Of a DNA stretch of 64,000 bases, positions 11,876 to 61,403 are shown piece after piece. This DNA is from Desulfobacterales bacterium (GTDB lineage: Bacteria; Desulfobacterota; Desulfobacteria; Desulfobacterales; SG8-13). The number at the start of each line of letters is the position of its first letter. The first letter of the stretch is position 1. The position numbers and the translations under genes are program-made. The notes beneath the pieces were generated by a model, which saw only the letters and a list, made by a program, of their open reading frames with translations, searched no databases and was not told the DNA's origin. The stretch lies in NCBI GenBank assembly GCA_049281435.1, contig JBAPSB010000016.1:10262-74261 (forward strand). The letters are read 5' to 3'.

Positions 11876-11904
11876 ATGGTCTTTTTTACGCGGCGGTTGC
11901 AGCG
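11876..11904 (+). repeat. fragment of the intergenic repeat family (ATGGTCTTTTTTACGCGGCGGTTGCAGCG)
   Basis: Aligns with 61196-61230 and with the revcomp of 38379-38413, needing one 6-nt gap. Confidence 0.6.
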
Positions 11905-38198: not shown

Positions 38199-38294
38199 CG
38201 CAAGCCTCCTTTATTCGATGGCGCCGTTCCCGGGACAAAAGATAGCCGGAAAGCAAATACCCGCAAGAAAAGCCGATGGCGTCTTTTCTGAATG

Positions 38295-38433
38295 GTGCCC
38301 ATCCGCGATCATTTGAGTGTCCAATTCATAAATATGAAGTTGTTCGCTGGGCAAGGCCATCCCGCCCCAGGCGGGAACCCGCTGCGACCGGCCGCCATGC
38401 GGGCAAAAGACCATTTATGGATGGACACTGAGT
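38295..38433 (-). repeat. intergenic palindromic repeat element, copy A (139 bp)
   Basis: The revcomp aligns with 61179-61363 apart from two internal indels. Shares the ~20-nt inverted arms and the GATCGCGGATGGGCAC tail. Confidence 0.8.
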
Positions 38434-38712
38434 GACAGGATCGAGATGAACCTTATATTTCACCAAACCGGCTGGCAAACCGGTGACGCACCATATCATA
38501 AGTGCACCGGCAGGCGGAGCCTTAAATACAGGCTTCAAGATAAAGGATTTGGCCGTGTTATTCGGTCGGTGGCGTACTACACTACAGCCGCCTTGCTCCG
38601 GCCTGGCCGAAATTTTTTCTAAAAGCCTGTCGAAATTTAACCCTCGAAACCCGGGACCCGTAACCCGCAACTCGTAACCACGCAGGGCGGGGTGGCGGCT
38701 TCAGGAGGCAGT

Positions 38713-51229: not shown

Positions 51230-51304
51230 CGCTCTTTTTCCTTTCACGGGTTAGTGGGTATTCAGTCATAACTGCTTTTTTTCCGCTGGACTGCCGGAGC
51301 ACAT

Positions 51305-51336
51305 AAAAAAAGCCCCGGAAAAAAATTCCGGGGCTT
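51305..51336 (-). terminator. rho-independent terminator hairpin 2 (GCCCCGGAA-T7-TTCCGGGGC + T7)
   Basis: Perfect 9-bp GC-rich stem followed by TTTTTTT on the minus strand. Confidence 0.7.
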
Positions 51337-51337
51337 T

Positions 51338-51380
51338 AAAAAAAAATCCCCGGACAGACCGGTTCACGATCCATCCGGGG
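51338..51380 (-). terminator. terminator-like hairpin 1 (CCCCGGA-N19-TCCGGGG + A T9)
   Basis: 7-bp stem followed by a T9 run on the minus strand. Its 3' arm is also complementary to the 5' arm of hairpin 2. Confidence 0.5.
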
Positions 51381-52333: not shown

Positions 52334-52366
52334 GCCCATCCGCGATCTTTTTTAGGCACTTTTCAG
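52334..52366 (-). repeat. leader motif shared with 61334-61361 (AAGTGCCTAAAAAAGATCGCGGATGGGC)
   Basis: 28/28 identical to the tail of repeat copy B in reverse complement. The GATCGCGGATGGGC core also occurs at 38297-38310. Confidence 0.8.
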
Positions 52367-61135: not shown

Positions 61136-61165
61136 TTGAATGTTGACGGGATTTTTGCCTATAGT
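61136..61165 (+). promoter_or_regulatory. candidate sigma70 promoter TTGAAT-N18-TATAGT
   Basis: Its -10 context is shared with 52398-52410. It would start transcription a few nt before repeat copy B. Confidence 0.45.
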
Positions 61166-61178
61166 GGCCCGGCACGAG

Positions 61179-61363
61179 TCAGTGTCCATCCATAAATGGT
61201 CTTTTTTCCGCTGGGCGGCCGGTTGCAGCGGGTTTCAGGCTGCGGCGTATATAAAGTACGCCTCGCCGTCCCGCCCAGGCGGGATGCGGCTTTGTCCAGC
61301 GAACAACTCCGCATTTATGAATTGGGCACTGAGAAGTGCCTAAAAAAGATCGCGGATGGGCAC
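61179..61363 (+). repeat. intergenic palindromic repeat element, copy B (185 bp)
   Basis: Arms TCAGTGTCCATCCATAAAT (61179-61197) and ATTTATGAATTGGGCACTGAG (61313-61333) are inverted. Internal hairpin TCCCGCC/GGCGGGA. Tail GATCGCGGATGGGCAC. Confidence 0.8.
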
Positions 61364-61403
61364 GAGTTAGCTGCCCTGCCCCCCATTGCCGAGGAGGTTC
61401 TCG

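Follow-up and report, generated by a model that had tools for sequence, protein, structure and literature searches.

In Enterobacteria and Yersinia, ERIC/IRU elements are palindromic MITEs of ~127–140 nt that lie between genes and form a long hairpin kept by compensatory changes. They are often co-transcribed, come in variants with internal insertions or deletions, duplicate TA at their target, and lack an identified partner insertion sequence (IS). In Neisseria, the Correia elements (CREE) are short MITEs bounded by terminal inverted repeats and found near promoters and in 5′ UTRs. They too duplicate TA, carry defined promoter and RNase III sites, occur in multiple assembly-breaking copies, and can alter expression. 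Roles as RNA stabiliser, processing site or translational modulator have been reported for both ERIC and Correia elements when co-transcribed. REP/BIME palindromes are intergenic as well, yet much shorter, without terminal inverted repeats or target duplication, and are linked to RAYT transposases. Among autonomous elements, the ISDol1 group, named after Desulfococcus oleovorans, has a length of 1.6–1.9 kb and repeats of 6–7 bp in the ISfinder family table.

Two repeats in the window (the whole 64-kb stretch of DNA analysed here, 60% G+C) are very probably MITE copies, non-coding deletion derivatives of a 1.7-kb IS of the ISNCY family. We refer to them as copies A and B (Table 1). Like ERIC/IRU, they belong to an intergenic palindromic MITE family of similar length with a compensated long hairpin and indel variants; unlike ERIC/IRU, the family resides in a different host clade, duplicates 6 bp rather than TA, and has an identified partner IS. 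The Correia elements offer a similar parallel, being short, multi-copy, assembly-breaking MITEs that end in inverted repeats and land next to promoters and in 5′ UTRs, again with TA rather than 6 bp duplicated. REP/BIME elements are alike in being intergenic and palindromic, but differ in length, ends, target duplication and linked transposase. A non-autonomous mobile element was one of two readings offered by the first-pass annotation, and it is borne out by terminal inverted repeats, a duplication of fixed length, a small non-coding body present in hundreds of copies in unrelated contexts, empty orthologous sites, and an autonomous IS with matching ends.

Table 1. Coordinates of the repeat copies, their parts, flanking duplications and related features in the window.
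Feature	Position	Strand	Remarks
MITE copy A	38295..38428	-	134 nt, tail-type, central hairpin deleted
Copy A left end, GTGTCCATCCATAAATGG	38428-38411	-	sequence
Copy A right end, GGATGGGCAC	38304-38295	-	sequence
Small GC palindrome nested in A, TCCCGCCCCAGGCGGGA	38360..38376		pattern match
Copy A duplication, first, TGAATG (+ strand)	38289..38294		sequence; relatives have single TGAATG or CAATG
Copy A duplication, second, TGAGTG (+ strand)	38429..38434		sequence; 5/6 same as first
MITE copy B	61182..61363	+	182 nt, complete tail-type element
Inverted internal copy of left end in B, CATTTATGAATTGGGCAC	61312..61329	+	first-pass "right arm", not terminus
Tail of B	61330..61363	+	matches transposase-proximal IS end; reverse complement GTGCCCATCCGCGATC
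Small GC palindrome nested in B, TCCCGCCCAGGCGGGA	61269..61284		replaces body sequence found in other copies
Copy B duplication, first, GAGTCA	61176..61181		sequence
Copy B duplication, second, GAGTTA	61364..61369		sequence; 5/6 same as first
Promoter-like TTGAAT-N18-TATAGT	61136..61165	+	host context; conserved in relatives; ends 17 nt upstream of B
Solo tail fragment	52334..52366	-	32/33 identity to B tail, E 5e-11
Degenerate left-end fragment	51258..51297	+	absent from first-pass list; points away from both minus-strand neighbours
First-pass core fragment	11876..11904	+	two exact 11-12-nt words split by indel; membership doubtful

Copies A and B are homologous, as the first-pass annotation had held. 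Three collinear blastn segments join them (56 nt at 91%, E 3e-15; 35 nt at 89%, E 4e-5; 16 nt at 100%, E 2e-3), and a repeat finder recovered the pairing as three repeat pairs. We also built an nhmmer family profile from 15 copies in other genomes only, with window sequence excluded; it matched B at model positions 1–176 (E 1.2e-36) and A across the whole model (E 3.7e-19). The inverted arms, the TCCCGCC/GGCGGGA hairpin and a third half-site in the tail, all described before, are present in the sequence. Where 0.03 matches to the hairpin would be expected in the window, there are 2, both inside the MITE copies. Elsewhere, a 16–17-nt palindrome of the form TCCCGCC-N2-3-GGCGGGA occurs within MITE bodies of L005, L030, L055, L087, L094, L105 and L110, where its position varies between genomes and stretches of the body are replaced. 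Other small palindromes, such as CCGCCGGAGGCGG and GTCCCGCTTTGCGGGGAC, behave likewise inside MITE bodies.

The family is dispersed across many genomes and is common in sulfate-reducing Desulfobacterales. Scanning one genome per GTDB species for the exact 18-mer GTGTCCATCCATAAATGG, a seeding that favours copies with intact left ends, we found this end at at least 119 loci in ~69 species-level assemblies (counted by accession prefix). Among the matches listed, nearly all carriers are Desulfobacterales or Thermodesulfobacteriota MAGs; the list also includes one complete genome, that of Desulfosarcina alkanivorans PL12, as well as a few bins with other labels. Extra copies occur near the seeds at ~38 per Mb. 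Many seed matches lie 100–130 nt from a true contig end, as expected of a multi-copy repeat that exceeds the assembler's k-mer. The flanking genes share no theme, ranging over histidine kinases, ABC ATPases, sigma-54 activators, acyl-CoA ligases and oxidoreductases. A scan of viral contigs gave no ends without a MITE body following.

This spread bears on the possibility, raised in the first-pass annotation, that the similarity reflects a recent local duplication confined to the source contig. The solo tail fragment, nearly identical to the tail of B, would fit such an event. Yet the family also occurs in all the genomes above and on 81 metagenome contigs, and A and B are only ~87–91% identical overall and sit in different contexts, making a local duplication vanishingly improbable.

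Family members come in two main layouts. Sizes run from 124 to 262 nt with a sharp mode at 141–142 nt. The common 141-nt type starts with GTGTCCATCCATAAATGG and ends with CATTT(A/C)TGGATGGACAC; the tail type, which includes A and B, continues for ~30 nt past the inverted end and finishes in ...CG(C/T)GGATGG(G/A)CAC. A 45-nt mini element consisting of just the two ends (GTGTCCATCCATAAATGGCCGGTTTGCCTGTTTCTGGACGGACGC) lies at about 4844–4888 of L095, a segment of the D. alkanivorans PL12 chromosome (896001–904000). That strain is cultured and completely sequenced, and the mini copy could serve experiments.

The tail, not the inverted arm, closes the element. Both window copies begin with GTGTCC on the left and end with GGGCAC on the right. 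In all tail-type copies the target duplication comes after the tail and never after the inverted internal arm, which identifies the tail as a real terminus. The first-pass annotation had correctly seen the arm ATTTATGAATTGG(G/A)CAC, which is an internal second copy of the end and not the terminus. Across A, B and 50 other complete copies, the terminal inverted repeats read GTGTCCATCC... on the left and ...GGATGG(A/G)CAC on the right.

Target-site duplications of exactly 6 bp flank the elements. Copy B is bounded as GAGTCA/GTGTCC...GGGCAC/GAGTTA and copy A, read on the minus strand, as CACTCA/GTGTCC...GGGCAC/CATTCA. A 17-nt repeat previously reported at both ends of B holds up as an observation, and it amounts to this 6-bp duplication plus adjacent bases. 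For each seed copy we compared the hexamer preceding GTGTCC with the one that follows the candidate right end. Among ~85 seed copies with a recognisable right end, the flanks were identical at 6/6 positions in 34 and at 5/6 in 18; a 6/6 match is expected by chance once in 4096. The target is the palindrome (C/T)TA(A/G)(C/T)TA(A/G), or YTARYTAR.

Both copies are insertions and not conserved leaders, because the orthologous intergenic sites are empty. On the B side, DUF294 orthologues are 84–85% identical and the gene order SH3(-), DUF294(+) is kept in three contigs (L120, L121 and L123). Intergenic alignment showed that these regions lack exactly B plus one duplication copy, with conserved sequence on both sides, as for a single clean insertion. 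On the A side, DUF547 orthologues are 79–88% identical, and copy A is precisely absent from the orthologous site in all four relatives that keep the order HerA-like(-), DUF547(+) (L124, L125, L127 and L128). L125, for example, has a single CTGAATGACAGG where the window reads CTGAATG, then copy A, then TGAGTGACAGG.

The insertions sit close to the control regions of neighbouring genes. Pfam confirmed the four neighbours that had been named before: a ferritin, a DUF87/HerA-like ATPase, a small NIR_SIR sulfite reductase and a cNMP/CBS/DUF294 protein. Copy B lies within the predicted 5′ UTR of the DUF294 gene, between a promoter-like site and the ribosome-binding site; relatives have this promoter-like site in the form TTGAAT-N18-TATA(G/A)T. 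On the DUF547 side, a promoter-like GTGACA-N16-TATATT at 38432–38459, kept in relatives, begins at a distance of 4 nt from A. The -35 of this site, which reads ATGACA in relatives, overlaps A's mutated duplication copy. From this arrangement, local effects are plausible both at DUF294, where B would add a 182-nt 5′ UTR hairpin, and at DUF547, where A abuts the -35.

A second, unrelated MITE-like repeat of ~100 nt lies between copy A and the DUF547 gene (window 38528–38630) and again near the window start (about 343–443). Its ends are imperfect inverted repeats of ~26 nt (ACAGGCTTCAAGATAAAGGATTTGGCC ... GGCCGAAATTTTTTCTAAAAGCCTGT). L127 and L128 have it at the orthologous site, L124 and L125 do not, and a relative of it adjoins the MITE in L034.

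The partner IS emerged from metagenomes. As the first-pass annotation had stated for the window, tblastn found no transposase homologue in its 64 kb; nor was one of the ISNCY family found among the at least 119 listed genome loci. Distant inverted ends, ORF clusters, Pfam matches and solo ends at those loci led only to ordinary host genes, and the ORFs in L057 and L086 are host genes too. We then scanned metagenome contigs for the 18-mer followed by a non-MITE body (non-T at position 23), which returned 81 loci. About 20 contigs from one sample shared the end and then, 150 nt in, an ORF starting MREKHQKQMPLM. A whole element, 1696 bp long and with an ORF of 451 aa, is present at one of the metagenome loci, L146. 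This ORF scored 470.7 bits against the NCBIfam model NF033593 for ISNCY family transposases (cut-off 325, E 4e-141), stayed below the cut-offs of the IS5 and IS1182 models, and contains the Pfam domains DUF772 and DDE_Tnp_1. Its homologues number in the thousands, mostly on 1.6–2.3 kb contigs, and those annotated by NCBI bear the name ISNCY family transposase. Complete copies on the long contigs L210, L211 and L212 measure 1682, 1699 and 1682 bp and have perfect 6-bp duplications (TAGGTA, AAACTA and TACTTA, respectively). Overall, the partner IS is 1.68–1.70 kb long, encodes one ISNCY-family DDE transposase of 451–457 aa, and is flanked by a TAGCTA-like target, as is the MITE.

The ends of the IS account for the layout of the MITE. 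They are unlike each other: the ORF-distal end (GTGTCCATCCATAAAT... and then a T-run) can be aligned to the left end of the MITE across ~26 nt, and the ORF-proximal end, GTG(T/C)CCATCC(A/G)(C/T)GAA..., aligns with the reverse-complemented MITE tail over ~14–16 nt. Tail-type MITEs thus carry both IS ends, and the 141-nt type carries two distal ends. The third half-site noticed earlier in the tail is explained as the other IS end. IS21-, IS481-, Tn7-like and IS630 partners, considered in view of the end sequences and of the doubling at the right end, were dropped once the ISNCY element was found. With its single ORF, ~1.7 kb and 6-bp repeats, the partner agrees with the description of the ISDol1 group in size and repeat length. 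ISDol1 has been treated as a subfamily of ISNCY (PMC8147514). Set against ISNCY/ISDol1-like ISs, the window holds the non-coding derivative only. An active ISNCY partner in the source genome is an unproven candidate, with no transposase among the regions searched.

A DDE partner also speaks to the REP-like label of the first-pass annotation, under which the repeats would be REP/BIME-type palindromes spread by a RAYT (HUH tyrosine) transposase. Intergenic, palindromic and multi-copy elements would suit that origin. REPs, however, are 20–40 nt long and have neither target duplications nor long inverted repeats, whereas the elements here measure 124–262 nt with exact 6-bp duplications, and their matching autonomous element encodes a DDE, IS5-like ISNCY transposase. 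We consider a RAYT-driven origin extremely unlikely.

Some partner IS copies occur in composite arrangements. At L146 55–72, L148 3356–3373 and L205 2629–2646, an IS end is separated from another IS end or a MITE end by exactly 6 bp (TAACTA, TAGCTA and TAACTA, respectively). One explanation is reinsertion into an existing duplication, as a duplication plus the terminal G recreates YTARYTAR; another is a circle or tandem-dimer junction. In L204, about 500–1620 (ORF on minus), a broken copy of the ISNCY element is followed by an ORF starting …GIDVAKDKH…, which we take to resemble an IS110-type transposase. If that identity is correct, L204 contains nested IS insertions.

Orientation relative to genes is random across the family. 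We assigned element strand from the profile match and genes from a greedy longest-ORF set, a heuristic. Among 139 elements at the at least 119 loci, 24 were co-oriented and 19 anti-oriented between tandem genes (p = 0.54), and the nearest downstream gene lay on the same strand in 37 cases and on the opposite strand in 46 (p = 0.38), although copies are related by descent and these are not independent events. Seeds alone gave 15 versus 13 between tandem genes and 29 versus 36 for the downstream gene. The first-pass annotation had reported that every copy points toward its adjacent gene, and had taken random orientation elsewhere as the sign of a plain REP or MITE. The counts point to a plain MITE, and even in the window the degenerate left-end fragment breaks the pattern. 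Co-orientation there is a small-sample coincidence of two full copies and two fragments.

The other reading in the first-pass annotation, a shared structured 5′ leader or cis-regulatory RNA, is largely refuted by the empty sites. Such a leader would act like a riboswitch or attenuator, its 5′ arm switching between the proximal arm and the tail. Several features of the window fit: both copies face an adjacent gene, B is positioned downstream of a conserved promoter-like site and upstream of a ribosome-binding site, its hairpin is of a kind kept by compensatory changes, and GUGUCCAUCC is able to pair with either of two downstream partners. As RNA, B folds strongly (-91.2 kcal/mol, z -6.6), its left end and tail forming the outer helix; A, whose centre is lost, is unremarkable (-53.7 kcal/mol, z -1.7). 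But the element is missing altogether from the orthologous leaders of these genes, gene-relative orientation is random, and the neighbouring genes are functionally unrelated. The two downstream partners are the two IS ends, given the 6-bp duplications and the partner IS. Rfam 15 at the gathering threshold had no match in the window, and typical copies (L084 and L006) matched nothing apart from a tRNA. A conserved leader is therefore very unlikely.

The hairpin of the MITE body is nonetheless maintained by compensatory changes, which the first-pass annotation had proposed looking for in the arms. In 18 copies of 140–145 nt from diverged subfamilies, one long common hairpin had 20 of 47 pairs changed on both sides on the given strand. 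Paired cells reached 92.0%, whereas column shuffles gave 80.6% and none of the 500 attained the observed value; the covariation score was 0.320 against 0.128 when shuffled and at most 0.132 with partners slid. The reverse strand gave a similar picture: both partners had changed in 22 of 43 pairs, and the consensus energy was lower. As RNA it also folded better in 48 of 52 complete copies (means -71.0 versus -61.6 kcal/mol). This strand, complementary to the GTGTCCATCCATAAATGG orientation, owes its advantage of ~9 kcal/mol partly to conserved U-G pairs within a GUUCGA/UCGGGC helix; the asymmetry may be inherited from the founder copy. G-U versus A-C asymmetry was discarded as evidence for an RNA strand, since conserved wobbles occur on both strands and the better strand is not the mRNA sense of B.

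Compensation of this kind is real, and its possible sources include at least selection for RNA or single-stranded DNA foldback, a requirement of transposition, and arm-to-arm conversion. It exceeds the need of a pure selfish relic, which hints at an added constraint. We do not read it as host function, given the random orientation relative to transcription and a better-folding strand that differs from the mRNA sense of B. A secondary role could still be layered on the MITE origin, with the hairpin recruited to stabilise RNA, to serve as a processing site or to modulate translation. The double compensatory changes, pairing and covariation above controls, a length held at 141–142 nt across diverged subfamilies, the strand asymmetry in folding, and the placement of B inside a 5′ UTR would all be consistent with recruitment. 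Yet random orientation with respect to transcription argues against a strand-specific RNA role, the better-folding strand is opposite to the mRNA sense of B, gene conversion between arms or a foldback requirement of the transposase would mimic compensation, and copies related by descent do not give independent counts. We regard recruitment as unlikely, though less so than a conserved leader. A somewhat more doubtful extension is that the 141-nt foldback body is under selection across Desulfobacterales as a dispersed hairpin module that hosts exploit, for example in transcript stabilisation or processing. If true, it would account for the compensatory changes, the fixed length and the strand folding asymmetry together.

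The window contains two ageing full copies plus two or three fragments. The solo tail fragment, reported before as a recurrence of the tail, sits ~80 nt upstream of the small sulfite-reductase gene; judged by its identity to B, it is a real remnant of a B-like copy, even with a family-profile E of 0.58. The degenerate left-end fragment aligns with the family consensus at a local score of 41, with 26 of 29 aligned positions identical (CATAA(A/C)TG...TTTTTTCCGCTGGACTGC), and with the profile at E 0.32. Directly after it, 51296–51345 contains an A-run, then a GC hairpin and a T-run (AAAAAAAGCCCCGGAAAAAAATTCCGGGGCTTTAAAAAAAAA), resembling an intrinsic terminator for both directions that separates two genes on the minus strand. 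Membership in the family could not be upheld for the core fragment. Its local score against B is 35, where random 120-nt windows have a 99.9th percentile of 30, but it scored only 22 against the family consensus and did not match the family profile, so its resemblance to B may be chance. Copies A and B may themselves be immobile relics, as their duplications are imperfect and A lacks the central hairpin.

These data suggest how the copies would have arisen and reached their sites. The IS transposase (DDE; DUF772 plus DDE_Tnp_1) would recognise the terminal GTG(T/C)CCATCC and subterminal bases at both ends and make 6-bp staggered cuts at the palindromic YTARYTAR, so that insertion yields the 6-bp duplication. 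The tail-type layout comprises the transposase-distal end of the IS, a palindromic body, an inverted distal end, and ~30 nt ending in the proximal end. Because the window is without a transposase, A and B were probably mobilised in trans, by an ISNCY transposase. Insertion presumably followed the split from relatives whose orthologous proteins are ~77–88% identical, and each window copy would since have gained one mutation in its duplication. B inserted downstream of the DUF294 promoter and ahead of that gene's ribosome-binding site, and A directly against the -35 of the DUF547 promoter, with any effect on these genes a by-product of insertion.

The MITE family is apparently absent from the searchable literature, yet conceptually it is not new. 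A full-text search did not find the end sequence, and searchable papers describe neither this MITE family nor any MITE of the ISNCY/ISDol1 group. For annotation, the repeats should be masked as mobile DNA and not carried forward as riboswitch or small-RNA candidates. In metagenome-assembled genomes of Desulfobacterales, many contig breaks are accounted for by MITE copies. The MITE and the partner IS, whose ends and YTARYTAR target are defined, are usable as a marker for strain-level insertion polymorphism. The insertions at the DUF294 and DUF547/HerA-like genes are a natural test case for how promoter and 5′ UTR insertions relate to expression.
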